From: Thermoplasmata archaeon
GTDB taxonomy: Archaea; Thermoplasmatota; Thermoplasmata; GCA-020350865
Direction: 5' to 3'
DNA length: 64,000 bases
Assembly (NCBI GenBank): GCA_020348445.1
Contig: CP070751.1
Location: 767,216 to 831,215 of the forward strand
Shown one piece after another: positions 12,157-29,039 of this stretch (positions are counted from its first letter, which is position 1; every line of letters starts with the position of its first letter). A program made the translations under genes and the position numbers. Below the pieces are notes generated by a model that was not told the DNA's origin, did not search any database, and saw nothing but the letters and a program-made list of their open reading frames with translations.

Positions 12157-13245
12157 CTAAGATAAGGTCTCAGCAATGATTTGGCATATATAATCGATCT
12201 CATGGTCCTTTAATGATGTAGCAGACGGAAGTGAAACACCTCTTTTTGCAATATCCTCCGCAACTTCGAGCTTTTCATCACTATAATCGATATAAGGAGG
12301 TTGGGTATGCATGGGGTAGAAAAACGGCCTTGTATCTATCTCCTTTTCTCGCAGGCGGAATGTGAAATCGTCTCTTTGGATATTGTCAACAAGTATAGAA
12401 TATAGCCAGTAAACATTCTTTGCCCAATCCATTTCTGGTGGAAGCGTAATATTTGATATCCCTTCCAACTTTTCATTGTATTTCTTGGCATTTTCTCTTT
12501 TTATCTGGATGTATTCTTCGATCTTCTCAACCTGGGCCAGACCCACAGCAGCCTGCATGTTGGTCATACGATAGTTGTAACCCATATACGGGTGCCAGTA
12601 TCTTTTTTCCTTGGACATTGCATGATCCCGAAGCATCATGGCTTTGTTCATGATCTCCTCATCATTTGTTGTAATCATACCCCCTTCGCCGCAGGTGATG
12701 ATCTTATTCCCATAAAAGCTGAAACAACCAACATGGCCGATTCCACCGACCTTTCTTTTCCGATACTCTGCACCATGAGCCTCAGCAGCATCCTCTATCA
12801 CGACCAGCGAATGATCCTCTGCAAGGTCCATTATAGGGTCCATATCCACAGGGTGCCCGTAGAGATGAACTGGAACTATTGCCTTGGTTTTTTCTGTGAT
12901 CTTTTCTTTAACTTTTTCTGGATCCATATTCCAGGTGCGCGGTTCTGAGTCCACGAAGACTGGCTTGGCTCCTGTGTAGGCTACACAATTTGCTGTTGCG
13001 ATAAAAGAGAGCGTAGGAATTATAACCTCATCGTCCTTGCCTATTCCGAAAGTGGCAAGTGCCAAATGCAGTGCAGTAGTACCACTTGATGTTGCGATTC
13101 CATATTTTGTTTCTGTGAATTTACTGAATTCCTCTTCGAATTTTTTTATGTACTTGCCTATGGAGGATATCCACCCTGAGCTGACACAATCGGTGACATA
13201 CTTAAGCTCATTTCCATTGAGTTTGGGCTCGGCAATAGGTATCAT
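12157..13245 (-). CDS. DegT/DnrJ/EryC1/StrS PLP sugar aminotransferase, perosamine-synthase-like
   Basis: GWISSIG, SSGTTALHLAL, EDAAEAHG, SFYGNKIITCGEGG (PLP Lys) and GYNYRM. Confidence 0.93.
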   Translation of the reverse strand: MIPIAEPKLNGNELKYVTDCVSSGWISSIGKYIKKFEEEFSKFTETKYGIATSSGTTALHLALATFGIGKDDEVIIPTLSFIATANCVAYTGAKPVFVDSEPRTWNMDPEKVKEKITEKTKAIVPVHLYGHPVDMDPIMDLAEDHSLVVIEDAAEAHGAEYRKRKVGGIGHVGCFSFYGNKIITCGEGGMITTNDEEIMNKAMMLRDHAMSKEKRYWHPYMGYNYRMTNMQAAVGLAQVEKIEEYIQIKRENAKKYNEKLEGISNITLPPEMDWAKNVYWLYSILVDNIQRDDFTFRLREKEIDTRPFFYPMHTQPPYIDYSDEKLEVAEDIAKRGVSLPSATSLKDHEIDYICQIIAETLS

Positions 13246-14250
13246 TCATAACCCCTTGTGCCATATTTCATCTTCGGAGGCTATCTTTTTCTCCCAAGGC
13301 CACTTGCTATCGTTTTCCTTGTACCAATTTATTGTACGCTTCAATCCTTCCACGATGTCGATTTTGGGATCCCAACCTATGAGCCTGTGAGCCTTGAAGT
13401 AATTACATTGCAACCTTTCAACATCCAGTGGGCGTAACCTCACATCCTCGACTTCGATTTCTATTGAATCGTGACCCATGAGCTCTGCTATGATATGTGC
13501 CAGTTCCTCCACTGACCAATCCTTGCCAAAGCCCAGGTTCACGACCTCCCCTACGGCGGAATCGCATTTCATAATAGCCACAGCACCCTTTGCAGAATCA
13601 TCAATGTATGTCAAATCCCTTCTTGCTTTGATATTGCCCAGCTTTAGTTTGTTCGTGCTCGACAATTGTGTGATGAGCTCTGGTATGATATATGGATGGG
13701 TTTCCCTTGGGCCATATGTGTTGAACTGTCTCATGATGATAATAGGTATATTTTGTTCATGGTAAAGGGTATAGCATAATCTATCGGCAGCCAGCTTACT
13801 TACCGCATATGTGGAGCATGGAATAGTTGGATGGTGCTCATCCATGGGAACATACTGGGCTGTTCCGTAAACCTCGGAAGATGAATACTGAAGAATCCTT
13901 TTGACCCCTGCCTCCTTTGAGGAAAGCATTACATTTAATGCGCCATTTGCATTGACCTCGAAGAAGTTCTTTGGCCTATCATAGCAGTGGGGGATATAGG
14001 GTTCAGCTGCCAGGTTGAATACACAATCGATTTTATGCTCCTTAAGATGATTCACAATTTTCGTATCGCGGATGTCTCCCTCAATCATTGTAATGTCGTC
14101 CTTGAGCTCCTGGATATTTGAGAGATCCCCGCTAAGATAGTTATCATAAATAACGACGCTTGAGCCCTCTTTGAGTAGTTCTCGAACCAAAGCCGAGCCA
14201 ATGAAACCAGCGCCGCCTGTGACAAATACGTTCCTGCCAGATAATTCCAA
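13246..14250 (-). CDS. NDP-sugar 4,6-dehydratase / epimerase (extended SDR)
   Basis: TGGAGFIG, SSSEVYGTAQYVP, YAVSK and FNTYGPR; abuts the aminotransferase start. Confidence 0.92.
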   Translation of the reverse strand: MELSGRNVFVTGGAGFIGSALVRELLKEGSSVVIYDNYLSGDLSNIQELKDDITMIEGDIRDTKIVNHLKEHKIDCVFNLAAEPYIPHCYDRPKNFFEVNANGALNVMLSSKEAGVKRILQYSSSEVYGTAQYVPMDEHHPTIPCSTYAVSKLAADRLCYTLYHEQNIPIIIMRQFNTYGPRETHPYIIPELITQLSSTNKLKLGNIKARRDLTYIDDSAKGAVAIMKCDSAVGEVVNLGFGKDWSVEELAHIIAELMGHDSIEIEVEDVRLRPLDVERLQCNYFKAHRLIGWDPKIDIVEGLKRTINWYKENDSKWPWEKKIASEDEIWHKGL

Positions 14251-14455
14251 ATTCTACACCTTCCCCGCTGATATATCTTAATCTTATTTAAATAAATCGT
14301 TTTAAAGGAACTAAAAGAAGAGAATTATCTAAAAGCGATAAGGTAATTCTATATTCGGGATATATTGCCGAATGCACAATAACTTCTATCATTTTTCATA
14401 TGCAGTTTGTTGCCTTTAAAAATGAATTTCATAGTGCAATCTTATCGAAAAAGGT

Positions 14456-17400
14456 CTATACCCCTATAAAAATGAATTTCGTGATACTTGTTGTGGAGAT
14501 TTGATAACCATCCGTCATCTTCAAAGTGGTATCAAATGCCCCCGCTGGCATTATCGTGGAGTGCCAGTACCACCGCTGCTTACTATCATTGTGATAGTTT
14601 ATGCCGACAGTGAACGGTATATTATCGCAGTACCAATCTGCAGTTTGATTGTCATTCAGTTTCAGTGGTATCCCAATTGTATCATATCCAGATAGGTACT
14701 CCTCTGTCCAAATTCCCACGCTGTACGTGGAGGATCCCCTAATGCCGCTTGCGTTAAAGGGGACAACCAAATAATACAACCTTGTCCCAGCTATGTGCGC
14801 CCCTATACCCGTTATGGTGGTTGTGTTGGTTCCATAGTTAATAATAGGGCACGCAAGAAAGTAATCTTCATCAATAGTTTTAAAAAATCCATCTCTCTTG
14901 TACGAAAAATACACCTCATACCATCCATCGGTCATACTCACAGGTTTCTGCCAGGATAGGTTCACATCACCATTTGATTTAACTATTACCTTGAGACCTT
15001 TGGCCTCGGTGTACGAATCAAAACCCTGAAATCCTTTGCTGTCCTTGTGTGATATCATGGCACCAGGCATACCAGTGAAGGTGTACACCGTCTCGATATT
15101 GAATAAAACCTCATAACATTCGCCCAATTTCATCTGTGTATCATTGGTAACACCTGCTCCATGTCTCATCCAGATATGCGAAGTTGGATTCATCCATTTG
15201 ATGTATATTGCGTTCATGCCTTTTAGGAAGAGGTCAGCCGTGGCTGACACTGTCTCCAATGGCTCAAGCGGTAAGGAAAACGTTGATACGCCTTGTGGGA
15301 ATGACTTGGTCCATTTCCCAACTGTTCTGCTTGTTGTGCTCGTTTTACCAAAAATATTCACCGCTTTCATTGTGTAATAATACTGCTCTTCATAGTTATC
15401 ATTGCCAAAAAGTGCAGCATTGGTATCATTCCACATCGTCCTAAGGGGTATTGGGCCAGGCTCACCGGATTCATTATCGCGGGAAGTATTAATCCAAGGA
15501 GTGGAAAAATCAAAATCAATCTGTGATGTAGAACGATATATCAAATAATGGTCAATACCAAGGGTTGAGGGCAAATCCCAATAAAGTATGACATCTCTTT
15601 TATCCTGGCTTACATTTATGTAAAGGGTAGGGGGAGCAATACCGATTACTGTGACATTAGTTTTATATACAGTTGCTCCACCATCATCATCCTCCACTGT
15701 AAGATTTATTGTATACACGCCCTCAGTATCATATATGTGTTGCACTAAATCAGATGTATTGAATGGGGAGTCCCCCCAGGGACTTGGATATGGATCTGGT
15801 CCTATGCCGTCGTTATAGTGGATCGTTGTGGTATTTGTCGTCCCATCCCCCCAACTCCAAGTAAAGGTCAAATCATCACTACCAGAATCTGTGGCATTCG
15901 CGACAAAGGAAAAGGGAAAACCTTCTTCTACATTAAATGGCCCAAATGGCTCGATTGTAGGTGCTAGATTATTTACAGTTACCTGCATGGTATCTGCATC
16001 TGATAAACCCTTACCATCTGTCACAGTTAAAGTGACTGTGTAAATCCCATCATCACCGTAAACATGGGTGGGTGTTGGGCCTGTTGCATCGGTGTCGTTT
16101 GTATTGTTACCGTCACCATTCGAGTCTACATTTGCATCTAAGTCCCAAGAATAAGAAGTAATGATCGGCTTTTTCTCTCCTTTTGCCACCCAATATACGG
16201 CATTTACTAGAATTTGGCATTCTTTTAAGGAGGGTAATCCGAGAAAGGTACCATCCTCACTAGCCACTGTGTGACCTATTACATCCAGGGCAACTCTCCC
16301 TTGACCATACTCTTCTGTTGTAAGATAAAAATTAATTAATCCGGGTAACGGTAACGTATCATGCTCTATTACAATATCAGCTGTTGTAACATAACTTTGG
16401 TCTGTATGAGTATAATGGAACCAAGGTGGAGGATAAGGAGTCTTTGGTATCAAATCACCTACATTTCCTATTTCAAAAAGGTTATGAAGAATCTCATGGT
16501 CCATGATAATCTCGGCATTTGGTATATCGAGGCCGACCACACTAGTAGAATTTAAATCGCAATCGACTCCTGCAGGCACTTCTATATTAGGTCCATAGTC
16601 CCAAGTATATTCAAGAGAATCGTGGGTCCATACGATGCCCCCACCATTAAAAACATATTCTTCTAACTCTTTTGTTCTGGCTATTGGAACACTGTTCATT
16701 TCAAATCCATTGTTTAATCCAAATACAATAGCATCATAAGATGAAAGATCATTTGGAGTTCCTGTATTAAATCCAAAAAGACCAACCTGAGTAACCGAGA
16801 AATTATCTGTTGAGCCAGTGTAATCGATCATCATTTGTAACTCATCGTGCTGCCCAACTGAAACATGTAAAACATTTATAATTCCAGATGAGCCCCTTCC
16901 TATGAACTGGACTTCATCACCTTCAAATACAACCTGATCCTCCCCCGCGTCGGCAACTGGGCGTATAACCCAAACCTGTAGAGCAACACCGTTTTTTGCA
17001 CAGGTTATGTTTTCCGAGGAAATTGTTATGGTGATATTGTCCCATTCGATATATGGGATAGAGGAGGGAATTGTGATTGCAATCCAAATATAAACAGATG
17101 ACCCGCTGGGAGTGTATATTTTCGTGATCTCAAATGTTCTTGTCTCATCAAGGATAACAACGTCATATCCATTGAGAGTAGAGTTGAATAATAGAACAGC
17201 ATCATCCACTGTTTGTCTATTTGTTATGGTCAAATTGAAATATTTTGTATCTCCAAGACTGCCATATTTGATAATCCCTCTAGCACTCAGAGTAACGATT
17301 TCTACTGTCGGCGTACAATCAAAGAACCAACCCGCTTTAATCGAGGTTGTATCATCGAATCCATCACTTGTTCCATTTCCATTGGGTACTCTAGACATGG

Positions 17401-19135
17401 TCTTTCCCTGTATATGCTGGGAACTCCAACCCGCCATGTCGAGTAAATCGCCGGTGTTTTTGTAAAGATAGATGTTGTCACCAGAGGATTCTAAAGCATC
17501 AAAGAAGGTTGTGTTCATTTCATATGTAAGATAGAAATATGGTTCGCTTGACATTAGCACTATGCCATCTGGAATTATGTATACAGTATCGCCGACGATC
17601 TTATATCCAGAGATGTCGAGTGATCCTCCTTTGAGATAGAGCTCAACAAAACCCTCAACCTGTGTATTGGGATTGAACATGATCTCGTTTAATATCAATA
17701 TCGAGCTCGAGTTTATAAACCGGACATTGTTTTTATTACCCCAAGTTGGACCAGATGAGGCGTTTCTAAGCCAATCGTCCGAGTAACATATCAAATTATC
17801 ATCAAATCGCCTTGCCACTGATTCGCCCTTCAAAGGATCAGGCGCAGTTCCTTCCTGCCCGAATGCAATCTCATCCACTAAGGCACCGTCTTTGTATAAA
17901 CCAATTGTATCCCCTTCCTTACCTATAGTTCCCCCTGTTACACTGAAAATTCCATATTCGTAAGTAGGAATCGGATCTTTGTTCCATGATCCTGTTAACC
18001 ATGAAGAACCGCCATCCACTGTGAAGCTAAAAGTAGCAACATTTGTGGGTTCAAGTCCATCATTATATACCTCGATTTGCGGTAAAGATGAGTCTGAATC
18101 TGAAAACTCAGTGATACGGTAACCATTTGCAGCTGTTTTATAGTAATATCGCGCATCCTTTATTGCAGTGATCATTTCATCGTAGGTACTGTTTATTGCT
18201 ATCACCAAAGTAAAGGTCCAAGATGATCCGATAGGTATCGTAACACTGTTCCATCCTATAGTTGAAGTTCGATTTCCTGGTGAGCCTCCCTCGACGCTGT
18301 TGGGAGCACGAATTCTGTCGTACAACCATGTCTCGTTTTCCCAATATGTCTTGTATTCATTATAATCAGCAGGGTGATAATCCCTTGAAAAGTAATGTGT
18401 GATGGGATCCGATGCTATGGCTGAGCCAAATCCTAGGCAAGTTCCCGTGCCACCGTCATCCTGAGCCCAGTAGACATTCTCAGTTGTGTTGAAACCGTCG
18501 GTGTCATCTCCTGAGTCCCCGCCCAAACCATATCCCGCCCCCTCTTGGGAGATGTCCACCTCCAAACCAAGGCAAAAATCGGTAATATCAGCAACAGGAC
18601 TTTTTATGTTGATCACCCTCCATTGAAGTATCGCCCAGTCCTTATCCTTGACAGTCCATGCTGATTGATTGATTAGAATGTCGTTGGCATCCTGGCTCGT
18701 CCCTATATTTTTGAATGTAGCTATGCTTTTTTGGGAGTTTCCATCATCTATGATGGTGTCAATTGGAGAAATAATCCCAAAGTCATCTTGACCCCAGTAA
18801 TCATTTGAAGCGAGGGCATAACAATCAGCGATATCAATTGATCCGGAGGTATGATCGTAATTGGCCTGATCAACAACCAATCCAATATACCCCCAACCGC
18901 CGTTACCAACGGTATGTAAGTTACCTCCACTGGGCCATTGTAGGGGTCGTAGGATCCTTCCAAAATCTGATAGCATATTGACCTTGAGTTCTCCTACATC
19001 ATGGTTCACGGTTGTAGCTTGGGCACTGGGTAAATATGTATATGCATCGATAATAAGCATACTAAAAATTAGGATTACGAGGGTTGTTAAAGAGAAAAAT
19101 CTCTTGTATTTACATTTCTTTTTTCTCCTAAACAT
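14456..19135 (-). CDS. Large secreted surface protein with lamin-tail-like, PKD and duplicated Fn3-like C-terminal modules
   Basis: Signal peptide; LILNEIMFN (LTD-like); PVADAGEDQ, YSWDLD...HVYGDDGIYTVTLTVTD and FTWSWGDG (PKD). ATG 19135 follows GAGGAGG SD. Confidence 0.82.
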   Translation of the reverse strand: MFRRKKKCKYKRFFSLTTLVILIFSMLIIDAYTYLPSAQATTVNHDVGELKVNMLSDFGRILRPLQWPSGGNLHTVGNGGWGYIGLVVDQANYDHTSGSIDIADCYALASNDYWGQDDFGIISPIDTIIDDGNSQKSIATFKNIGTSQDANDILINQSAWTVKDKDWAILQWRVINIKSPVADITDFCLGLEVDISQEGAGYGLGGDSGDDTDGFNTTENVYWAQDDGGTGTCLGFGSAIASDPITHYFSRDYHPADYNEYKTYWENETWLYDRIRAPNSVEGGSPGNRTSTIGWNSVTIPIGSSWTFTLVIAINSTYDEMITAIKDARYYYKTAANGYRITEFSDSDSSLPQIEVYNDGLEPTNVATFSFTVDGGSSWLTGSWNKDPIPTYEYGIFSVTGGTIGKEGDTIGLYKDGALVDEIAFGQEGTAPDPLKGESVARRFDDNLICYSDDWLRNASSGPTWGNKNNVRFINSSSILILNEIMFNPNTQVEGFVELYLKGGSLDISGYKIVGDTVYIIPDGIVLMSSEPYFYLTYEMNTTFFDALESSGDNIYLYKNTGDLLDMAGWSSQHIQGKTMSRVPNGNGTSDGFDDTTSIKAGWFFDCTPTVEIVTLSARGIIKYGSLGDTKYFNLTITNRQTVDDAVLLFNSTLNGYDVVILDETRTFEITKIYTPSGSSVYIWIAITIPSSIPYIEWDNITITISSENITCAKNGVALQVWVIRPVADAGEDQVVFEGDEVQFIGRGSSGIINVLHVSVGQHDELQMMIDYTGSTDNFSVTQVGLFGFNTGTPNDLSSYDAIVFGLNNGFEMNSVPIARTKELEEYVFNGGGIVWTHDSLEYTWDYGPNIEVPAGVDCDLNSTSVVGLDIPNAEIIMDHEILHNLFEIGNVGDLIPKTPYPPPWFHYTHTDQSYVTTADIVIEHDTLPLPGLINFYLTTEEYGQGRVALDVIGHTVASEDGTFLGLPSLKECQILVNAVYWVAKGEKKPIITSYSWDLDANVDSNGDGNNTNDTDATGPTPTHVYGDDGIYTVTLTVTDGKGLSDADTMQVTVNNLAPTIEPFGPFNVEEGFPFSFVANATDSGSDDLTFTWSWGDGTTNTTTIHYNDGIGPDPYPSPWGDSPFNTSDLVQHIYDTEGVYTINLTVEDDDGGATVYKTNVTVIGIAPPTLYINVSQDKRDVILYWDLPSTLGIDHYLIYRSTSQIDFDFSTPWINTSRDNESGEPGPIPLRTMWNDTNAALFGNDNYEEQYYYTMKAVNIFGKTSTTSRTVGKWTKSFPQGVSTFSLPLEPLETVSATADLFLKGMNAIYIKWMNPTSHIWMRHGAGVTNDTQMKLGECYEVLFNIETVYTFTGMPGAMISHKDSKGFQGFDSYTEAKGLKVIVKSNGDVNLSWQKPVSMTDGWYEVYFSYKRDGFFKTIDEDYFLACPIINYGTNTTTITGIGAHIAGTRLYYLVVPFNASGIRGSSTYSVGIWTEEYLSGYDTIGIPLKLNDNQTADWYCDNIPFTVGINYHNDSKQRWYWHSTIMPAGAFDTTLKMTDGYQISTTSITKFIFIGV

Positions 19136-19404
19136 GTATTTCCCTCCTCTCATTAACGGGATGCACACGAGCCTGAAATAGTATTTTGCTAATCAAATAT
19201 ATTAATAGCAATTTTTCGACTATTTCCTCTCAAAGGAAATATATATAAAACAGGTATAAATCCTTTTTGTTGTAATAATTGATATTTTGCTTGATCTGAA
19301 TTGAATGAAAATCCAGAGTTTTTAAACAGAATTTGTATATGAAAATATTAAATTTAAATACTAAAAGATGAATCAGGCACTATAGTGCTTTACAGGGGAT
19401 CGCC

Positions 19405-20205
19405 ATGGCCCTTTTCAAATTCGACCTGTTCGATGATCAATACCTCATTAAGGGATTCAAAGGTGAGCACCACTTCGAAGAGGTTCAAATAACTCCCAAG
19501 GACAAGCGGCTCCTACGAATTATTAAGATTTGCTTGGGAATATACAGCGCCTTTATCCGTTTCCGCATTAGAATGGCCCCAAATCGCATGGAGCGCGCCT
19601 GTCGCACCTATTCCCGTGGACCGCGAGGATTTCTGTTGCGCGCAATTTATTATAAGACTAAACTGAGACATTTGGGGCAGAACACTCTAATCGACACAGA
19701 CGTGAAAATCTGGAATCCGCAGAATGTCAGTATAGGAAGTTACAGCCATATAGATCTGGGTGCCGTGATCGAAGGGGGACCTCTGGGAAAGGGTAGAGTG
19801 GATATTGGGAACCATACACACATTGCTGCCAATAGCTTGCTCTCAGGTCGCGGGGGGTTATATATCGGAGACAACGTGGCAGTCGCTGCTGGTTGCCGGA
19901 TTTTCACAGCTTCTAACTTTCATACCGATCCTGATGGACGGTACTGCTACATGTCCGCTGTTTCGAAGCAGGAGCATCAGTATGTCGTGGAAAAGCCAAT
20001 ACATATAAAAAAAGAGGTGTTAATAGGGGCTAACTCAGTCATCCTTCCCGATATAACCGTTGGTGAGGGGTCAGTTGTTGGGGCCCTTTCCCTTGTCACG
20101 CAGGATATTCCTCCATACTCAATCGCCATGGGGTATCCGGCAAGAGTCATCATGAAACGGCCCAAAGGAGAACTGCGCTCCGTCAAAAAAACCTCAAAGA
20201 AGTGA
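19405..20205 (+). CDS. Left-handed beta-helix (hexapeptide repeat) acyltransferase
   Basis: Hexapeptide repeats (VSIGSY, VDIGNH, LYIGDN, VLIGAN, TVGEGSVVGA) and AMGYPARVI end motif. Confidence 0.9.
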   Translation: MALFKFDLFDDQYLIKGFKGEHHFEEVQITPKDKRLLRIIKICLGIYSAFIRFRIRMAPNRMERACRTYSRGPRGFLLRAIYYKTKLRHLGQNTLIDTDVKIWNPQNVSIGSYSHIDLGAVIEGGPLGKGRVDIGNHTHIAANSLLSGRGGLYIGDNVAVAAGCRIFTASNFHTDPDGRYCYMSAVSKQEHQYVVEKPIHIKKEVLIGANSVILPDITVGEGSVVGALSLVTQDIPPYSIAMGYPARVIMKRPKGELRSVKKTSKK

Positions 20206-20249
20206 TAAAATAAATCAAAGTCCAAATAGAAATATGATCTGTGATTCTA

Positions 20250-20600
20250 ATGGAAATCGGCGTTGATTGTGTTAATATTGATAGATTTGAAAAAGAAAAC
20301 CTGTCTAGTGAAGCCCTATTGAAGAAGATATTCACAGAAAAGGAAATACTATATTGCGAAAAAAAGACAAAATCTTCTCAGCATTATGCAGTGAGATTCG
20401 CAGGAAAAGAGGCGGTAATGAAGGCTCTTAATCAATATAATATCAAAATCCCCACGAACAAAATAGAGATACTTAACAATGAAAAGGGAATTCCATATGT
20501 CAGAATTCTCGATAATAATTTGAATGATTTAGATGTTAAAATAAGTCTAAGCCATTCCAAGGATATCGCAATTGCCATGGCCATTATATACAAGAAATAA
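20250..20600 (+). CDS. acpS: Holo-ACP synthase (4'-phosphopantetheinyl transferase)
   Basis: IGVD, IFTEKE..YC, RFAGKEAVMKAL, G.P and SLSHS motifs. ATG at 20250 (ORF track uses GTG 20241). Confidence 0.95.
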   Translation: MEIGVDCVNIDRFEKENLSSEALLKKIFTEKEILYCEKKTKSSQHYAVRFAGKEAVMKALNQYNIKIPTNKIEILNNEKGIPYVRILDNNLNDLDVKISLSHSKDIAIAMAIIYKK

Positions 20601-20849
20601 AAGGTGCTTGATGGTCCAGATTTATATTCAACTTTTTAAGAACATGTTCAAGCTCTTTAATCTTTATTGATATTTGGTTTCCCACTTAATCTGTTAAAAT
20701 ACAGCTGAATATGCCGATAATTCCATTAAATACGATATTTTTATAATATTGCTATTGTTGGTAATCGTTAATATAAAATATAAGTAATCAATATATCATC
20801 CTCTCAAATGAAGATATGATATTTAACAATGTGGGCGGAGTCGATAACC

Positions 20850-21098
20850 ATGGAAAATCAAATGAACAGAATTAAAGAAATATTCTGCGAAATAGTAGGA
20901 GTCGATGAATCAGAAGTTGATGATAACACATCTTATCAATCGCTTGAGCCTTGGGATTCTCTGAAACATCTGGCAATTGTATCTAGATTGGAAGAAGAAT
21001 TTGATATCGACATTGAGATGGATGATATCATTGCTATGGAGACTTTCAAAAAAATTAAGGAATTGGTGGGAAAATATCTGGATAAAGAGGGCGATTAA
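20850..21098 (+). CDS. Acyl carrier protein
   Basis: Small acidic protein with WDSL phosphopantetheine serine and LEEEFDI motif; GGCGGAG SD before ATG 20850. Confidence 0.92.
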   Translation: MENQMNRIKEIFCEIVGVDESEVDDNTSYQSLEPWDSLKHLAIVSRLEEEFDIDIEMDDIIAMETFKKIKELVGKYLDKEGD

Positions 21099-22600
21099 TG
21101 AACGTTGTGGATTACTTCTTAGAAAACAGTCAAAAACTCGATAAGATGTGTGTTGCTGGCACAAAAGAAACTATTACCTACAAAGAATTGTGGGAGAGGG
21201 TCAATTACCTTGCTTCATATATCCACGATAAATTTGGTCGCGAAAAGGAGATACTTCTTTTGTCTGATAATAACCTTTTTTTCATATTAAGTTACCTGGC
21301 CATTATGAAAAGTGGAAATATCGTTGTCTTGGTTGAGAGTAGAATAACTGAGAAGCAACTGGTAAGTATCATAAAAAGGTGTTCATTGAGTGCTATTTTC
21401 ACTCAGGAGATATACAAAAAGAAAGTGGCTGCCTACGAAAATGTATTTACAGAGACATTATTAGAATCGTTACCAGAAAAAGGCCATGATATAGAATCAG
21501 AGATTAAAGATGATGATATAGCGGTGATCATTTTTACCTCAGGAAGCACGGGAGAGAAAAAAGGAGTCATATTAACCCATAAAAACATCAGGGCCAACAC
21601 CGAATCGATAATCGAATATCAGGAACTTACTGATAAAGACAGGATCGAGGTGGCACTTCCCTTCTTCTACTGTTTCGGTGCCTCCCTTCTTCATACACAT
21701 CTTAGGGTTGGAGGCAGCATGGTTTTAAATAAAAGTATCTTTTTGGGTTCTGTTATCAAAGAAATCAATGAATACAAGTGTACTGGATTTGCAGGAGTGC
21801 CAGCCACATATCAAATCCTTATCAGCAGAGCAAATTTTTTAGAGCAGAAGTTACCAAGCATCAGATATTTTGCCCAGGCGGGAGGTAAGCTTCCCAATAA
21901 GTTCATTGCCATGATAACCGAGGCTTTTTCTGATAAATCCTTTTTCGTCATGTATGGTGCAACTGAGGCCACAGCCCGATTGTCCTACCTTGAACCGCAT
22001 CTTGTCAAGAAAAAGTTGGGTTCCATAGGCAAGGGGATACCAGGAGTAACACTAGAGGTCCTCAACGAAAATGATGTCCAAATAAAACCTGGCGAAGTGG
22101 GAGAGATAACAGCCATTGGTGAGAATATAATGAAGGGATATTATAAGGATACAGAAGAGACAAATAGGATCCTCAAAAACAGGAGATATTATACTGGGGA
22201 TTTGGCAACAGTAGATGATGATGGTTTTATTTATGTTGTAGGACGATCAAAAAATATTATCAAATCTGCTGGTTACAGAATATCCCCCAATGAGATCGAG
22301 GATGTTATTCTCGAATTAGAGGGCGTGTCCGCTTGTGTCGTATTGGGCCTGCCTGATGAAATTATGGGTGAAGCCGTGGTGGCAGTGGTGGAGACAAAAG
22401 AGCCTAATGAAAAATTTAAGGATGAGATAATATCTGAATGCAATCGTATACTACCTTCATATAAAGTTCCGAAAAATATAGTGTTTATCAAGAACATGCC
22501 CCTAAATTCATCCAGGAAAATAGATAGGTTCCAGATAAAAGAGATGATGATGTCGGTCTATAAGAATGGAGAAATTCCCCTGGAGTTGAAAGTGAAATGA
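21098..22600 (+). CDS. Adenylate-forming acyl-CoA/acyl-ACP ligase (ANL family)
   Basis: IIFTSGSTGEKKG, YGATEA, YTGD, GR.KNIIK.AGYRI and C-terminal catalytic K (SRKIDR); start overlaps the ACP stop. Confidence 0.93.
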   Translation: MNVVDYFLENSQKLDKMCVAGTKETITYKELWERVNYLASYIHDKFGREKEILLLSDNNLFFILSYLAIMKSGNIVVLVESRITEKQLVSIIKRCSLSAIFTQEIYKKKVAAYENVFTETLLESLPEKGHDIESEIKDDDIAVIIFTSGSTGEKKGVILTHKNIRANTESIIEYQELTDKDRIEVALPFFYCFGASLLHTHLRVGGSMVLNKSIFLGSVIKEINEYKCTGFAGVPATYQILISRANFLEQKLPSIRYFAQAGGKLPNKFIAMITEAFSDKSFFVMYGATEATARLSYLEPHLVKKKLGSIGKGIPGVTLEVLNENDVQIKPGEVGEITAIGENIMKGYYKDTEETNRILKNRRYYTGDLATVDDDGFIYVVGRSKNIIKSAGYRISPNEIEDVILELEGVSACVVLGLPDEIMGEAVVAVVETKEPNEKFKDEIISECNRILPSYKVPKNIVFIKNMPLNSSRKIDRFQIKEMMMSVYKNGEIPLELKVK

Positions 22601-23724
22601 CTCAAGAGGGCAACTTAGACAATAATCCCGATATATCCTTGGAAGACCTGATAAAGCTGAAGCAATATTCGCTAACTGACGATGAAAAAAACAAAATACT
22701 GTTAAAAATCATAAAGAAACAGCTAGTTCATGCAAAAAACAACAATAGACATATAAGTAATTTTTTTGAAAAACAGAATATCGATATTGGCAGTATAACC
22801 AGTATAGATGATGTGCCGCCATTACCTATCCAGATGTTTAAATATTTTGATTTGGCAACCTGCCCAAAAGATCAAATAGTCAAAATACTAAAATCCAGTG
22901 GAACAACAACAAATCTTCCAAGCAAGGTTCCCCTAAATAAAAATACCACCCTCAATCAGGTTAAAGCCCTTAACTCCATACTGTCCGATTATATTGGGAA
23001 AAAGAGGAGGATATTTCTGGTAATAGACCATGAAGGGATAAATGATCCAACTCTAGAGCTCTCTGCAAGAACAGCAGGAGTGAGGGGCTTGAGTATTTAT
23101 TCTAAAAAGATACACTATCTATTAAAAGAAGAAAACGGTAAATTGATATTGAATCTCCCCGTGATAAACGAGCTTCTAGATGGTTATGAAGATGAGGAGG
23201 TGTACGTTTTTGGTTTTACCTATATAATCTGGTCCACTTTTTATGAGCAAATAATCAAGAAGAATATCAGATTTAAGTTTAAGGATGTGAAGATATTTCA
23301 CAGCGGTGGATGGAAAAAATTGGTAGAGCAACAGGTGTCAAAGGAATTCTTTTCCAAAGAGATTGCCAAAATATTTGGTACAGATATGAAAAATGTATAC
23401 GATTTCTATGGGATGGCCGAGCAAAATGGTATCATATTTGTTGATTGTGAATATGCAAATAAACACATTCCAAATTTCTCGCAGGTAATAGTAAGAGATA
23501 TTCAAACCCTCAAACCATGTAAAATAAATGAACCCGGTATAATCGAGGTAATGAGTATTTTATCAGATAGCTACTACAGTCAAGCAATATTGACTGAAGA
23601 TATCGGATATCTTATCGGGATCGACGATTGCGCATGTGGCAGAAAGGGAAGGTATTTCAGATTTAAATCAAGGGTGGAAAGAGCTGAGATCAGGGGTTGT
23701 GGCGACACTTTCAGGGAGAAGTAA
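22597..23724 (+). CDS. LuxE-like acyl-protein synthetase
   Basis: FK, SSGTT, DFYGMAEQ, ILTEDIG and RVERAEIRGCGD (conserved C-terminal Cys). Confidence 0.9.
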   Translation: MTQEGNLDNNPDISLEDLIKLKQYSLTDDEKNKILLKIIKKQLVHAKNNNRHISNFFEKQNIDIGSITSIDDVPPLPIQMFKYFDLATCPKDQIVKILKSSGTTTNLPSKVPLNKNTTLNQVKALNSILSDYIGKKRRIFLVIDHEGINDPTLELSARTAGVRGLSIYSKKIHYLLKEENGKLILNLPVINELLDGYEDEEVYVFGFTYIIWSTFYEQIIKKNIRFKFKDVKIFHSGGWKKLVEQQVSKEFFSKEIAKIFGTDMKNVYDFYGMAEQNGIIFVDCEYANKHIPNFSQVIVRDIQTLKPCKINEPGIIEVMSILSDSYYSQAILTEDIGYLIGIDDCACGRKGRYFRFKSRVERAEIRGCGDTFREK

Positions 23725-23725
23725 T

Positions 23726-25027
23726 ATGATAAAATGCTATCTTCTAGATGGAAAATTCCAGGAAAATACATATGATGATTTTACCACGATTTCAGAGAGT
23801 GTGAATGCAAACAGAAAAAAAATATATCATCTCAAACTCGACGTAATAATAGAGCTCTTAACAAAATTAGGAAGGAAAATAATTACAGATGGAACCATCA
23901 ACACCGTGGAGGGAGTCGGCTACATTACCCTTTGGCTGAGAAAAGATAATTTAAAGAAGATATGCAGATTAAACTATTTGGACCAGACATATTATGAAGA
24001 TTTCAAAGAGACGGAAAGTAAATTTGAATTGTGTGCCCAACCAAGAGGGATTGTGTGTCACTGGGTGGCAAGTAACGTGCCCACATTATCCTTCTTCTCA
24101 TTGATACAATCTATATTATCAAAAAATGGCAGCATCGTTAAGGCTCCAGAGGAAAATATCGATATAATTTTGACCATATTAAAACACCTCAACGAGATAG
24201 AGGTCGAACATGACGGGATGACTTATTCTGGAAAAGATATTGTAAGTTCTGTTTCCATAGTATCTTTTGATGGGGGGAACTTCACTGACAGCAAAAACTT
24301 CTCCCAAGTTGCAGATTGTAAGATCATCTGGGGAGGGGCTGAGGCGATTTCGAGTGTTACGGCATTACCTCAAAAAGAGCACTGTGAAATAATATCCTTT
24401 GGACCCAAATATTCATTTGGAGTTTTTGACAGGGAATTTATCGAAAGCAATTACTTTGAAAAGGCGCTGGCAAATACTGCTACAGATATTGCTATATTTA
24501 ACCAGATGGCCTGCTCTTCTCCCCAGGTTCTGTTCTTTGAAAAAAGTAGATATTCAATCCAAGAAATTGCCCAGAAAATGAAATCCTATTTTGAAGAACT
24601 TCCAGAAAAATATCTCAAACAGTACATACCTCAGGGGACAGCCTCAAATATTATCAACATCAGAGGCATGTACCTATTGGAAGATGATAAAGGGATCCTT
24701 AAATCTGATGATCTTAGTTGGACTATTTTGATTGATAGCGAACTCAGACTCGAAGAGCCTGTTCAGGGAAAGTGTATTTTTATTAAAGAGATTGACGATA
24801 TTGATGATGTTCTGGACCTGATCACACGCAAAATCCAGGCCATGACAGTATGTATTATAAATCCCGATAAGAGAAGAGAGTTTGCTAAAAATGCCACATA
24901 TAGAGGAGTTGATAGGATAGTCGTCCCAGGTAAGATCCATGATTTTGATCTGCCGTGGGATGGGATCTTGCCATTAAACAGGTTGGTAAGATGGGTTATA
25001 TTAAAGAATGGAATAGGAAGTGAATAA
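23726..25027 (+). CDS. LuxC-like acyl-CoA/acyl-protein reductase
   Basis: PRGIVCHWVASNVP, IIWGG, FGPKYS, FNQMACSSPQ (catalytic Cys) and HDF..PWDG. ATG at 23726, 1 nt after the LuxE stop. Confidence 0.9.
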   Translation: MIKCYLLDGKFQENTYDDFTTISESVNANRKKIYHLKLDVIIELLTKLGRKIITDGTINTVEGVGYITLWLRKDNLKKICRLNYLDQTYYEDFKETESKFELCAQPRGIVCHWVASNVPTLSFFSLIQSILSKNGSIVKAPEENIDIILTILKHLNEIEVEHDGMTYSGKDIVSSVSIVSFDGGNFTDSKNFSQVADCKIIWGGAEAISSVTALPQKEHCEIISFGPKYSFGVFDREFIESNYFEKALANTATDIAIFNQMACSSPQVLFFEKSRYSIQEIAQKMKSYFEELPEKYLKQYIPQGTASNIINIRGMYLLEDDKGILKSDDLSWTILIDSELRLEEPVQGKCIFIKEIDDIDDVLDLITRKIQAMTVCIINPDKRREFAKNATYRGVDRIVVPGKIHDFDLPWDGILPLNRLVRWVILKNGIGSE

Positions 25028-25769
25028 AATGCTCAAGGACAAAGTGATACTTGTAACTGGAGGGAGCAGGGGTATAGGCAGGGCTACGGCCCTGCTTTTG
25101 GCTGAAAATGGGGCAAAAGTAATTGTAAACTACAATAAAAGCGAAAAAGATGCTGAGGAAGTTGTTACTTTAATAAACGAAAAAGAGGGTGAGGCGATAA
25201 AAATAAAGGCTGATGTCTCCAATGAAAATGAAGTCAAAGAGATGTTTTCTCAGATAAGAAACAGATTTGGTAAAATTGATATCTTGATAAACAATGCCGG
25301 GATAGTACAAAACAATCTATTGCTGATGACAAAGACCGAGGAATTCGACAGAATAGTCGATACAAACTGCAAGGGTGTTTTCCTCTGTATGCGTTTCGCT
25401 GCAAAGATGATGATGAAAAAACGATCAGGTAAGATCATAAATATTTCATCAATTGTTGGGAGATACGGAAACAGTGGGCAGGTTGTGTACTCGGGCAGCA
25501 AAGCATTTATAATTGGGCTGACAAAATCTGCAGCTAAGGAACTGGGTATGTATGGTATTACTGTTAACGCTGTTGCCCCAGGTTTAATCGAAACTGATAT
25601 GATCAAAGGTCTAAAGGAAGAGATTATACAGAATCTGTTGAATAATATACATTTGGGTCGGATGGGCACCCCCGAAGATGTGGCAAAAGTGATATTATCC
25701 CTATGCTCAGATTTAGGTGATTATGTCAGTGGTCAGGTAATTGGAGTAGACGGTTGCCAGATAATGTAA
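25020..25769 (+). CDS. fabG: FabG-like 3-oxoacyl-ACP reductase (classical SDR)
   Basis: TGGSRGIG, NNAG, YSGSK and VNAVAPG..ETDM. Confidence 0.88.
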   Translation: MNKMLKDKVILVTGGSRGIGRATALLLAENGAKVIVNYNKSEKDAEEVVTLINEKEGEAIKIKADVSNENEVKEMFSQIRNRFGKIDILINNAGIVQNNLLLMTKTEEFDRIVDTNCKGVFLCMRFAAKMMMKKRSGKIINISSIVGRYGNSGQVVYSGSKAFIIGLTKSAAKELGMYGITVNAVAPGLIETDMIKGLKEEIIQNLLNNIHLGRMGTPEDVAKVILSLCSDLGDYVSGQVIGVDGCQIM

Positions 25770-25853
25770 ATGTTTAACCTGTTGTTTAAAAAATTCATGA
25801 TTTATAGAAGCTGCGTTAAAATATAGATTTATTTCGGAACAAGGAGAAAGAAG

Positions 25854-26459
25854 ATGACAAAGTATTTCGAAGCGCCCGAATGGGATGATTTCTGGGATTC
25901 TTCCAAAAAAAAACAAAGGGGTTTTAAAAGACTAGCTGATATTTTTAGGGATCATTTCGATGAGCAATACATAAGAACCTTAGAAAAAATCTCACCTGAT
26001 CCAATTGGGAAAATTCTTGAGGTGGGTTGCGGAACAGCATATTGTTCACAAAAGTTAAGCAGTGCTGAAGTCGATAGTTATGCAATAGATTATTCAGAAA
26101 AAGCCAAAATATATTGGAGAAACAATTCTGTGCACTATTTTATCGGGGATGGCTTTTTTCTTCCGTTCAAATCGAACAGCTTTGATGTTGTTTGGAATGC
26201 TGGTGTTCTTGAGCATTTTACAAATCCCCAAGAATTGTTAAGGGAAATGATTAGGGTATGTAAACCCGGGGGTATAGTATGTGTTTTTGTACCTTATATT
26301 TTTGATTTTACGGCCCATCTAAAGCTTTATGGAGAAGAGAACATTTATACAGGCAGAAAATTGAAGCATGAGTTAAGAGAACTGCAAAAGGTAAATGTAA
26401 AAGTTCTTTATTCATGTGGTGCCATGATGATATGTGGATGGGGAGAAAAGAGAAAATGA
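25854..26459 (+). CDS. Class I SAM-dependent methyltransferase
   Basis: ILEVGCGT motif I; LPFKSNSFDVVWNAGVLEH. Confidence 0.9.
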   Translation: MTKYFEAPEWDDFWDSSKKKQRGFKRLADIFRDHFDEQYIRTLEKISPDPIGKILEVGCGTAYCSQKLSSAEVDSYAIDYSEKAKIYWRNNSVHYFIGDGFFLPFKSNSFDVVWNAGVLEHFTNPQELLREMIRVCKPGGIVCVFVPYIFDFTAHLKLYGEENIYTGRKLKHELRELQKVNVKVLYSCGAMMICGWGEKRK

Positions 26460-26490: not shown

Positions 26491-27195
26491 TTATAAATTT
26501 TCGAATCTCAATTTTAACACTGTAAGGCAGTACCTCTTTCCCCATCTAAAAAGATTGTATTCCTCAGGGGCGGTCTTTGTTTCACCTGCTGTTCTGTATT
26601 TATAAACAAAGGGTACTTCCTTGATGCGATAGCCCTTTTTCTTAGCCGCATATAAGAAACCTATACAGTAATTGCCGTAACCTCCCCACTCATCAAGGAT
26701 CTGGATGTCACGAAATATCTCCTTTCGAACGGCTAGAAAACCTCCTGTATAATCCCTTATTTCAGAACCCAAGAAAATCCTCGCAAATAGATTTATCATC
26801 TTGCTAAGAAAAACCCTTGCCTTTGAAGCTTCCATCTTGCCTCCTTCGGTGTGCCTGGACCCCAATGCAATATCCGATTCCCCAAGGGCGGATATCATAT
26901 CAGGTATCTTTTTTGGAGGATGTGAAAAATCTGTATCCATCACCACAATTACATCCCCCTTGGCTGTCTCTATTCCTCTTTTGATTGCAGAAGCCAAACC
27001 TCTTTCGTCAATTCTTCTTACTAGGATTATTCTCTCATCGTCCATTTTCTCGACGATATTCCAAGTGCCATCGGGAGAATTGTCATCCACTACAACGATT
27101 TCAACTTCATCTTGTAGACTTTTTAATACAGCGTGAATTAAACTTTCAATGTTCTCTTTTTCATTATATGTAGGCATTATAACCGATATTTTCAT
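26491..27195 (-). CDS. Polyprenol-phosphate mannose synthase-like GT2
   Basis: ISVIMPTYNEKENI, VDDNSPDGT, MDTDFSHPP and G.R motifs. ATG 27195 follows GGAG SD. Confidence 0.92.
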   Translation of the reverse strand: MKISVIMPTYNEKENIESLIHAVLKSLQDEVEIVVVDDNSPDGTWNIVEKMDDERIILVRRIDERGLASAIKRGIETAKGDVIVVMDTDFSHPPKKIPDMISALGESDIALGSRHTEGGKMEASKARVFLSKMINLFARIFLGSEIRDYTGGFLAVRKEIFRDIQILDEWGGYGNYCIGFLYAAKKKGYRIKEVPFVYKYRTAGETKTAPEEYNLFRWGKRYCLTVLKLRFENL

Positions 27196-27218
27196 GGATT
27201 CAATCTCCATCAACACCA

Positions 27219-29039
27219 TTATCTAGTCTGGTTCAATTCTGTAATTTGATAAATATCACTGAATTCATCATAATATACGGTTCGATAGTTGTACATTGCA
27301 TTAAATCTAGCAATATTCTCATGATGACTTTGCAATCTTGTATCGTGTGTCTGTGCATATTTTGGAGTTCCCACTTTGACATATGAATCCCTAAACCAAA
27401 ACTCCAGGATATAAATAGAAATCCCGTTTTCAAATGAACTGTTTATATAATCTGAAACGTTTGGGTCACGTATTACATCAATGATCTTTATCGTCTCAAT
27501 ATCAGAATAATAGCCGTAAAAGAACTTCATTGGCTCATCTGTTAGCATTATGGAGTTTTTTACATCAATATTTTTTGTTGTATCATGTATATAATCTATC
27601 CTTAGATCTTTATTAACATGGGCATCATAAAAAACAATACCATTGTTTACAAGCAAAATTACTACAATAACCCCCGTCATTGGGATGATATATCTTTTCA
27701 TTTTTTTAGGGATGTTTTGTTTTAGAAACAACAATTTTATTTCTTCTGTGTTTATTAAACTGAGACCTATGCAAATGGACAACCAAACCGGTGTTAAAAG
27801 ATAAACCCATGCATTTCTATCACCACCACCATAGAAAAATCCTTGGAGAAAAAAAGGGACCATCATGATATAAACAGAACGCACTATTTTGTTACCTCTT
27901 GCAGAGATCAATATGAACGCCATGATCAGAAATACTATTGCACCTAAAAATAATGTAGTCCCATAATAAATAGGGTCGCTTGATATGAACATAAGAAGAG
28001 TTGTGAAAACACCACCTGCCATCTCCCGGATTTGAATAATGACCGAAAAATTTTCTGGATCTGAAAGACTGAAATATTCACTATCAGGCCTGTGAACGTA
28101 TGTAAATAAACCTATAAACTCTTCTAAACTCTCTACTTTTAATATATATGCTACACTCCCAAAAACTATCACACAAATTATGATCGTACCTAATAAATAG
28201 AAGATAAATTTTATACTTTTAAGAAATTTTAGACCTTCATATCTCCAGATTATGAACAAGGAAGCGATAAACAAAAGAGCGAAAAAAATATGTGCTGCCA
28301 GGGTTAAGCCCATAAAGATACCGGTTACAAGTCCTTTTTGCCATGGTTTTAAAGCTTCAAACCATTTAATAGACTTCATTTCTCCAACGTACGCAAAGAG
28401 AAATAACAAGTATAAAGTCATCATTAAAAATCCAAGGTGCTTGTCTTCTGCCATTTCACAGTTTTCCCAAAAAGCAAAGGAGAACGCCAGTCCAAGGGAA
28501 CATATTAAAGAATACTTTCTATTCCCAACAAATTTATTGCAGATAAGAAAGAACACTGCTATTGTTAAGGAACCCAATATTGAGTTCAATATTGCAAAGC
28601 TGAGCAAATAATCCTTGCCTATCAGAGGTAACATGGGATATGTGAATACAATGGCCAGAGGTGTTGTTAAGGGATGAGCTGGACGAAAGATGTCACGATT
28701 GCTCACCTCGTTTCCTTCAAAATAATTCTTTAACATTAAACCGTACTCAACTGTATCAGATGTGAAATAGAAATCCCATACAACAAGGTTAATATAGAAT
28801 ATCAATAAAATTAAAAATAATAAAAAGGCCTGAATCCGTATATCCCGCAGCAACTTACCTATTTTTGGATATCTCCTATCTATGGGGGCCATAATCTTAT
28901 TAAAAAATCCATTTTCTTCTGATGCTCCCTTACCTTCGTCTTCAGTGGATGATTCTTCATCTTCTTTCGAGCCCATGTTTTCATTATCTGAATCCTCTTG
29001 GGATTCCAGTTCTGGTGATTCGTTGTTATCAGAACTCAC
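27219..29039 (-). CDS. Multi-pass GT-C-like (DUF2723-type) membrane glycosyltransferase
   Basis: SDTVEY...HPL luminal loop, LNSILG, FWE...E and about 11 TM helices; adjacent to the Pol-P sugar synthase. Confidence 0.65.
   Translation of the reverse strand: MSSDNNESPELESQEDSDNENMGSKEDEESSTEDEGKGASEENGFFNKIMAPIDRRYPKIGKLLRDIRIQAFLLFLILLIFYINLVVWDFYFTSDTVEYGLMLKNYFEGNEVSNRDIFRPAHPLTTPLAIVFTYPMLPLIGKDYLLSFAILNSILGSLTIAVFFLICNKFVGNRKYSLICSLGLAFSFAFWENCEMAEDKHLGFLMMTLYLLFLFAYVGEMKSIKWFEALKPWQKGLVTGIFMGLTLAAHIFFALLFIASLFIIWRYEGLKFLKSIKFIFYLLGTIIICVIVFGSVAYILKVESLEEFIGLFTYVHRPDSEYFSLSDPENFSVIIQIREMAGGVFTTLLMFISSDPIYYGTTLFLGAIVFLIMAFILISARGNKIVRSVYIMMVPFFLQGFFYGGGDRNAWVYLLTPVWLSICIGLSLINTEEIKLLFLKQNIPKKMKRYIIPMTGVIVVILLVNNGIVFYDAHVNKDLRIDYIHDTTKNIDVKNSIMLTDEPMKFFYGYYSDIETIKIIDVIRDPNVSDYINSSFENGISIYILEFWFRDSYVKVGTPKYAQTHDTRLQSHHENIARFNAMYNYRTVYYDEFSDIYQITELNQTR

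Follow-up and report, generated by a model that had tools for sequence, protein, structure and literature searches.

The DNA analysed here (the window, 64,000 nucleotides of a Thermoplasmata archaeon from sediment) lies within one 5.16-Mb contig, CP070751.1, and features a run of eight co-oriented genes, all on the plus strand, at positions 19405–26459. They encode an LbH acyltransferase, an AcpS-type 4'-phosphopantetheinyl transferase (PPTase), an acyl carrier protein (ACP), an adenylate-forming ligase, members of the LuxE and LuxC families, a FabG-like short-chain dehydrogenase/reductase (SDR) and a methyltransferase. The six genes from AcpS to SDR form the core of the cassette considered below. 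The open reading frames (ORFs) of the window were annotated with Pfam, at its curated cut-offs, and with NCBIfam models. All eight genes pass the Pfam curated cut-offs, and the two model collections confirmed the gene identities that a first-pass annotation had read from the sequence (Table 1). The glycosylation setting proposed there was upheld as well: the window holds a DegT aminotransferase, two 4,6-dehydratases, one family 2 glycosyltransferase (GT2), several of family 4 (GT4) and a flippase.

From ACP to SDR the genes are translationally coupled: three neighbouring pairs overlap, by 1, 4 and 8 nt, and the remaining pair is 1 nt apart. The ligase start codon is overlapped by the ACP stop codon, and LuxC starts at ATG 23726 rather than at GTG 23636, consistent with all homologues. 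LbH and AcpS are 35 nt apart. The run as a whole, earlier described as tightly coupled, is not uniformly tight, because AcpS ends 228 nt before ACP and the methyltransferase begins 84 nt after the SDR; the description holds for ACP through SDR. In other loci the AcpS–ACP gap is about 30 nt, and the long spacer seen here is a possible internal promoter region. A promoter and terminator scan, made with a sigma-70 model that is ill-suited to archaea, performed no better than on shuffled sequence, and no direct or inverted repeats were found that mark the cassette borders.

Table 1. Features of the locus, with positions in the window and the basis of each assignment
Feature	Position	Strand	Basis or remark
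LbH (hexapeptide-repeat) acyltransferase, AntD-like	19405–20205	+	Pfam Hexapep
AcpS-type 4'-phosphopantetheinyl transferase	20241–20600	+	Pfam ACPS 57 bits; TIGR00556 79 bits, above cut-off
AT-rich spacer between AcpS and ACP	20601–20828	none	228 nt, 26% GC
ACP, W-D-S-L motif	20829–21098	+	Pfam PP-binding
Adenylate-forming ligase	21098–22600	+	Pfam AMP-binding and AMP-binding_C
LuxE-family acyl-protein synthetase	22597–23724	+	Pfam LuxE 191 bits
LuxC-family thioester reductase	23726–25027	+	Pfam LuxC 213 bits
FabG-like SDR	25020–25769	+	Pfam adh_short_C2 231 bits; NCBIfam FabG subfamily NF009466 247 bits (cut-off 222)
Class I S-adenosylmethionine-dependent methyltransferase	25854–26459	+	class I methyltransferase match; judged native, outside the cassette
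DegT aminotransferase	12157–13245	-	best PDB match 3BN1; NCBIfam LegC-family 406 bits (cut-off 420)
NAD-dependent 4,6-dehydratase	13246–14250	-	LegB-/RmlB-like; LegB 271 bits (cut-off 475)
PKD/LTD-domain surface protein, 1570 aa	14456–19168		between amino-sugar genes and cassette
GT2, polyprenyl-phosphate sugar synthase-like	26491–27219	-	native; NCBIfam best matches below cut-offs
GT-C/ArnT-like membrane protein, 606 aa	27219–29039	-	native; ESM Atlas ArnT/PMT_2-like
Flippase-like LPG_synthase_TM protein	11050–12108		native

The carrier protein and its activating enzyme are the only ones of their kind in the host. The W-D-S-L serine motif of the ACP is kept across an alignment of 15 homologues, as the first-pass annotation had led one to expect. 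Across the 5.16-Mb genome the PP-binding profile has a single match, the cassette ACP, and the PPTase profile (PF01648) likewise has one, the cassette AcpS. In four other archaeal carriers, too, the cassette ACP is the sole PP-binding gene. A PPTase gene travels inside the archaeal cassettes, being of AcpS type and collinear with ACP in 20 archaeal-type loci and Sfp-like in six of the seven Asgard loci; none was found beside 22 related Clostridium cassettes. ACP and ACP synthase have been reported missing from nearly all archaea, the few exceptions being ascribed to transfer (PMC3533463; bioRxiv 10.1101/2024.07.05.601840), which agrees with the earlier statement that archaea generally lack this chemistry. 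Profile searches of the genome returned zero matches to malonyl-CoA:ACP transacylase (FabD, PF00698) and to LuxD (PF02273). A true ketosynthase was not found in the genome either; PF00109, a profile that also matches in all archaeal control genomes, gave just two weak thiolase-like matches of 25 and 20 bits. The transacylase and ketoacyl-ACP synthase that accompany ACP and AcpS in a type II fatty acid synthase are therefore not seen in this genome. The cassette is neither a fatty acid synthase nor a bioluminescence LuxCDE system.

The host is archaeal, and a bacterial chimera, the objection raised in advance, is refuted by the archaeal flanks and by cassette joins that recur in two samples. 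Genes for the primase large subunit, OapB/OapC, DUF835 and DUF1616 lie within 10 kb on either side. An independent 13.5-kb short-read contig covers 16865–30000 with zero differences, and in a second sediment sample contigs of identical or near-identical sequence cross both cassette borders at even depth. Searches of four genomes of the same genus, including a closed one of 3.2 Mb, and of one genome of the same order turned up no LuxC, LuxE or ACP, and the DNA of 19405–26000 has zero matches in the four same-genus genomes. Because its relatives in the genus do not carry it, the cassette was probably acquired horizontally. Base composition is weak evidence for such a transfer: GC content is 0.33–0.40 in the six-gene core, yet it is also low in the native methyltransferase, GT2 and GT-C genes.

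The site of insertion can be followed by gene order. In the same-genus genome G004 the order is ornithine transcarbamoylase, GT-C-like protein, GT2, methyltransferase, flippase-like protein and PriL; the block at 12157–25769 of the window (DegT, dehydratase, PKD protein and LbH through SDR) is missing, and the genes that flank it here directly adjoin. A second same-genus genome, G003, has the DegT/dehydratase pair, carries methyltransferase, GT2 and GT-C on another contig, and is without the cassette. Thus, the cassette and the amino-sugar genes sit in the middle of a native module of flippase-like protein, methyltransferase, GT2 and GT-C. The methyltransferase, earlier counted as a member of the run, had to be removed from it: its orthologues (52–59% identical) adjoin GT2 in both cassette-less genomes, and it is not kept beside the cassette in other loci. 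Because same-genus genomes without a cassette keep it next to GT2, it is, on comparison of gene orders, a native gene. The absence of the cassette from all kin searched would also be expected of a passenger, recently acquired DNA that is silent or decaying in its host. Such a fate is very improbable, given that none of the seven reading frames is broken, that catalytic residues and the coupling of start and stop codons are preserved, and that two samples carry the same or almost the same sequence.

The distribution of the cassette was surveyed with one genome per species by tblastn and clustering, yielding 79 loci, several of them on truncated contigs. LuxC homologues of 50–83% identity are numerous, and every named one is archaeal. 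The synteny comparison that had been suggested for the locus finds AcpS-ACP-ligase-LuxE-LuxC-SDR in this same order at about 25 archaeal loci spread over several phyla, cultured methanogens included. The unit is therefore not singular and occurs in dozens of archaeal genomes. The AcpS/SDR type is found in Methanomicrobiales, Methanomassiliicoccales, Methanohalophilus, Altiarchaeia, Woesearchaeota and Nanohaloarchaea, with Methanosphaerula subterraneus, Methanogenium marinum, Methanohalophilus profundi and Methanospirillum purgamenti among the cultured carriers, and the SDR follows LuxC in 23 of the 27 archaeal-type loci scored. A second type occurs in Asgard archaea, among them Promethearchaeum syntrophicum and Lokiarchaeum ossiferum. 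Its order is ACP-ligase-Fe-ADH-LuxE-LuxC, where Fe-ADH is an iron-containing alcohol dehydrogenase, and it is accompanied by LbH genes, a MaoC-like gene and a PPTase of the Sfp-like kind; the Fe-ADH stands between ligase and LuxE in all seven Asgard loci.

In a LuxC tree built by a quick method, the sequence from the window groups with almost exclusively archaeal ones in a clade of 27 rows with 100% support. Among sampled genomes, LuxC of this type occurs in 2 of 401 from the host's own phylum, 7 of 401 from the phylum of Methanosphaerula and 7 of 301 from Asgard archaea. This patchy occurrence fits lateral spread; a tblastn search of plasmids with LuxC gave zero matches. Two metagenome-assembled genomes labelled bacterial (KSB1 bacterium, L017, and 'bacterium', L016) carry an archaeal-type cassette with AcpS nested in the archaeal LuxC clade, reflecting either transfer from archaea to bacteria or mis-binned contigs. 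A search for longer forms recovered fused LuxE-LuxC proteins, with Vibrio cholerae WbeN not among them. In one genome of the same class (G051, locus L001) a 929-aa frame combines distant LuxE and LuxC parts (21–23% identity) and represents a fused form of a different subfamily. Methanoregula/Methanospirillum loci (L025, L027, L028, L030, L061, L069 and L076) continue after the cassette with two tandem SDRs and a split transketolase-like (thiamine pyrophosphate) pair, which suggests a more elaborate acyl group there.

The genomic neighbours of the cassette bear directly on its role. Of the 27 archaeal-type loci, 16 have LbH genes within 10 kb, 11 have GT4 genes and 7 have DegT genes, and DegT genes also lie within that distance in 4 Asgard loci. 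LbH, DegT, GT4 and nucleotidyltransferase genes thus recur beside archaeal cassettes and not beside the Clostridium ones, which form a third type of ACP-ligase-LuxE-LuxC in 22 genomes, without AcpS or SDR. The Clostridium cassettes are followed by genes for a sigma-54 activator, a 4-hydroxybutyryl-CoA-dehydratase/HpaB-family protein, a NifU-like protein and an acetyl-CoA hydrolase/transferase-family protein, a context that is non-glycan and possibly related to C4 acids. With no LbH, DegT or glycosyltransferase genes nearby, these 22 loci lend some credit to the idea that the core reduces an acid to an alcohol for catabolism or as a soluble product, and that its position in a glycan locus is incidental. 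For the archaeal cassettes this is distinctly improbable, in view of the neighbours that they repeatedly adjoin and of the insertion of the present one within a glycosylation module.

The catalytic proteins retain the features needed for carboxyl activation and reduction. LuxE aligns to 7XC6_E (E 6e-20), its C-terminal R-G-C-G cysteine corresponding to Cys364, and LuxC aligns to 7XC6_A (E 6e-16), its Q-M-A-C cysteine corresponding to the catalytic Cys296 of Photobacterium phosphoreum LuxC, a numbering cross-checked via the adjacent F297 (PMC9157457). The LuxC catalytic cysteine is invariant in 18 homologues, and both cysteine motifs named in the first-pass annotation are thereby substantiated. 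The luminous LuxC-LuxE pair of 7XC6 accordingly represents the same two families with both thioester-carrying cysteines kept. The relationship is nonetheless distant (E about 1e-16 to 1e-20), and the NCBIfam equivalog models are missed by far, LuxC reaching 104 bits against a cut-off of 750 and LuxE 79 against 550. Compared with the luminous system, the cassette is without LuxD and luciferase and adds an ACP, a second adenylating enzyme and an SDR. Furthermore, the cleft-entry residues F297 and H442 of P. phosphoreum LuxC are replaced by Ser and Trp, which are invariant in the homologue alignment.

The best PDB matches of the ligase are a carrier-loading nonribosomal peptide synthetase (NRPS) A domain, followed by oxalate-, o-succinylbenzoate- and malonyl-CoA ligases; none of its matches reaches an NCBIfam equivalog cut-off. 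It is unlike an amino-acid activator, because the Asp that binds the alpha-amino group in A domains is replaced by Cys, and an amino-acid-loading (DltA-/NRPS-like) enzyme was set aside on this ground. A lipid product has to be weighed at this point: ligase and ACP together with LuxE and LuxC might process long-chain fatty acids into a fatty aldehyde or alcohol, or into an N-fatty-acyl 'liposugar' anchor. LuxC and LuxE are families of fatty-acid reductase components, the ligase scores 308 bits, under the cut-off, against an NCBIfam long-chain fatty-acid CoA ligase subfamily, and a lipid component was the guess of the authors who described a bacterial module of similar content in Aeromonas and Enterobacteriaceae (PMC7874193, PMC4875605). 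Such a product is unlikely, however, given the wide shortfall against the luminous equivalogs, the altered LuxC cleft entry, a genome without LuxD, FabD or a true ketosynthase in profile searches, and a homologous V. cholerae locus that is tied to a C4 hydroxy-acid (PMC3441752).

The SDR carries both the TGxxxGIG and the YxxxK motif, exceeds the cut-off of an NCBIfam FabG subfamily and almost reaches that of TIGR01830. No Fe-ADH was found at 9–31 kb of the window with a hidden Markov model built from Asgard Fe-ADHs, nor in the Pfam scans. 3-Hydroxybutanoyl is a common N-acyl group of bacterial glycans, and the FabG-like scores, like the title of an AntD structure solved with 3-hydroxybutyryl-CoA (3VBJ), would suit a true 3-oxoacyl-ACP reductase that converts, for example, acetoacetyl-ACP into 3-hydroxybutanoyl-ACP, LuxE and LuxC serving another step. 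This assignment is distinctly unlikely, as it leaves the strictly co-inherited LuxE-LuxC pair roleless, and as Asgard archaea and V. cholerae use in place of the SDR an Fe-ADH, which is no 3-oxoacyl-ACP reductase.

The LbH protein links the cassette to amino sugars. Its best PDB matches are the 3VBK/3VBI/3VBN series (E 1e-18 over residues 85–254, identity about 30%), which the PDB titles confirm to be AntD, an enzyme that N-acylates dTDP-4-amino-4,6-dideoxyglucose with a hydroxyacyl group (PMC6031040). The likeness rests on the sequence match, because the Foldseek matches of the AlphaFold model (predicted local distance difference test score 70) are weak, with AntD on top at E 0.03. AntD of Bacillus cereus (3VBI–3VBP) is the nearest solved relative and shows hydroxyacyl transfer to a 4-amino-4,6-dideoxyhexose; it does not have the N-terminal extension of about 85 aa (19405–19660) of the window protein, which is predicted to be helical with a hydrophobic stretch and might anchor the enzyme in a membrane or dock it to the carrier protein. 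In this extended form the protein has just 3 close homologues (66–70% identity) among 5.8 billion proteins, no orthologue was found in the same-genus genomes, and its GC content is 0.48, as against 0.33–0.40 in the core. Because base composition and rarity differ from those of the core, LbH probably has a separate origin. Its earlier inclusion in the unit thus stands in so far as the gene is present and AntD-like, and is weakened as to common descent. The DegT aminotransferase is most similar to perosamine synthetase (3BN1, E 9e-110), and together with the adjacent 4,6-dehydratase it is the probable source of a nucleoside diphosphate (NDP)-4-amino-4,6-dideoxyhexose acceptor.

Two described bacterial systems offer points of comparison. 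With the wbeK–O genes of V. cholerae O1 (rfbK–O, VC0248–VC0252), of which wbeK encodes the ACP and wbeO the acetyltransferase, the cassette shares a neighbouring ACP and ligase, LuxE and LuxC domains with the catalytic cysteines, and an LbH acyltransferase. LuxE and LuxC are fused there as WbeN and separate genes here, and an Fe-ADH lies between ligase and LuxE/LuxC in place of the FabG-like SDR that follows LuxC here. VC0249 is the ligase, VC0250 the Fe-ADH and VC0251 the LuxC/LuxE protein (PMC3441752, PMC9915646), and genetic evidence connects the locus with tetronate, the C4 hydroxy-acid that N-acylates perosamine (PMC3441752). The Asgard order of ligase, Fe-ADH, LuxE and LuxC equals that of VC0249–VC0251, compared by description. 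Relative to this system the cassette adds an AcpS gene and an archaeal host, and comparative evidence supports the earlier view of a self-contained archaeal counterpart of wbeK–O with its own AcpS and an SDR in the place of the Fe-ADH (PMC9915646, PMC3441752). The Asgard gene order is that of cholera wbeL-M-N. By composition the closest described bacterial counterpart of the present cassette is the flagellin-island module of Aeromonas and enterobacteria. In Aeromonas group II and Enterobacteriaceae, flagellin glycosylation islands contain an uncharacterised module of ACP, 3-oxoacyl-ACP reductase, AMP-ligase, LuxE and LuxC (PMC7874193, PMC4875605), the same five gene types, including a FabG-type reductase, within a protein-glycosylation island. 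That module does not include a PPTase and lies between pse (pseudaminic-acid) genes, next to flagellin and maf genes; Pfam scans of the window ORFs turned up neither a NeuB/Pse synthase nor Maf nor flagellin. A GT2 gene adjoins luxC in Aeromonas (PMC7874193, PMC4875605), whereas the GT2 of the window is native and convergently oriented. A similarity to Shewanella sfmABCDE was considered and rejected, as those genes encode NeuB, a thiamine pyrophosphate enzyme, a ketoreductase, a methyltransferase and an ATP-grasp protein. A literature search found no paper linking LuxC/LuxE with archaea.

A published mass touches on the Aeromonas module. A. piscicola AH-3, which carries it, has a 376.14-Da pseudaminic-acid derivative and a 102-Da moiety (PMC7874193). 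Dihydroxybutanoyl, an acyl group of formula C4H6O3 and of the same mass as tetronyl, accounts for 102.03 Da, and Pse5Ac7Ac (316.13) less an acetyl (42.01) plus 102.03 gives 376.15. The match is a tentative lead, and isomers such as O-methylglyceroyl fit equally.

Taken together, the cassette is probably, though not securely, a horizontally acquired and self-sufficient carrier-protein pathway for tailoring a surface glycan, which would hold a short acid on the ACP, reduce its distal carboxyl to an alcohol and pass the acyl group to a perosamine-type amino sugar. In the proposed sequence, AcpS would convert the apo-ACP of the cassette into holo-ACP, onto which the ligase would load an adenylated short carboxylic acid, most plausibly a C3–C5 diacid with or without a hydroxyl group, malate being one example; malonate and succinate are among the other candidates. 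LuxE would adenylate the free distal carboxyl and hand the acyl from its C-terminal cysteine to the LuxC cysteine, LuxC would reduce this thioester with NAD(P)H to the aldehyde, and the FabG-like SDR would complete the reduction to an omega-hydroxyacyl-ACP. The AntD-like LbH protein would then move the acyl onto the amino group of the NDP-4-amino-4,6-dideoxyhexose supplied by the nearby dehydratase and DegT, and the modified sugar would be passed on to glycosylation enzymes, which may be those of the native GT2/GT-C module alongside. This tether-activate-reduce scheme is suggested because ACP, ligase, LuxE and LuxC are strictly co-inherited while two unrelated dehydrogenases alternate beside them. 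A step from aldehyde to alcohol appears to be required, because the SDR and the Fe-ADH are non-homologous and replace each other. The same model has long been proposed for the V. cholerae tetronate.

Several observations weigh against this proposal. Every chemical step, like the substrate and the acceptor, is deduced from sequence. The ligase sequence does not reveal its substrate, and its best NCBIfam matches include long-chain fatty-acid ligases. B. cereus AntD takes acyl-CoA rather than acyl-ACP, and the LbH gene of the window differs in GC content and in type from the LbH genes beside other archaeal cassettes. The link to perosamine relies on a DegT/dehydratase pair that lies 5 kb away on the opposite strand, beyond the 4.7-kb gene of a surface protein, and that is present as well in the cassette-less G003. 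The likeness to V. cholerae and Aeromonas is one of gene content and order as described in print. Moreover, because the Clostridium relatives have non-glycan neighbours, the chemistry of the core need not involve sugars.

What is new here is an archaeal, AcpS-carrying cassette; the kind itself is known from bacteria, where it is biochemically unsolved, and it turns up widely in public sequence data. An archaeal genome of 5.16 Mb here has its sole ACP and sole PPTase genes within one mobile, probably glycan-tailoring cassette, and this sole-ACP arrangement extends to cultured methanogens and Promethearchaeum, offering a testable explanation of sporadic archaeal ACPs. A broader generalisation, to which somewhat less than an even chance is given, is that archaea, in which acyl chemistry on carrier proteins is otherwise lacking, have time and again taken up a whole ACP system, PPTase included, solely to decorate surface glycans with a tetronate-type reduced hydroxy-acid. 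If true, solving the pathway in a cultured methanogen would yield the first archaeal holo-ACP-dependent pathway and also the chemistry of the cholera O1 and Aeromonas modules. The archaeal carriers include tractable hosts for a pathway that has never been reconstituted in V. cholerae O1 or in Aeromonas/enterobacterial flagellin glycosylation. In V. cholerae O1 the pathway shapes a protective antigen and phage receptor.

The native genes around the insertion resemble known glycosylation genes. The best NCBIfam matches of GT2 are a Dol-P hexose transferase, ArnC and AglJ, and the 606-aa GT-C protein is similar to ArnT/PMT_2 in the ESM Atlas (feature score 0.99, TM score 0.65–0.74). Both genes are conserved in the same-genus genomes, and it is speculative that their products are downstream users of the acylated sugar. 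The native module of flippase-like protein, methyltransferase, GT2 and GT-C resembles three-component polyprenyl-phosphate-sugar systems of the Arn/Gtr type. The PKD/LTD protein is missing from the matching position in G004, and many partial DNA matches at other places in genomes of the genus show that it belongs to a large family of paralogues. Additionally, a mangrove metagenome contains short contigs that match stretches of the cassette and of its flanks without a difference and amount to a small share (0.10) of the sampled words; the organism or a close strain may also live in mangrove sediment.

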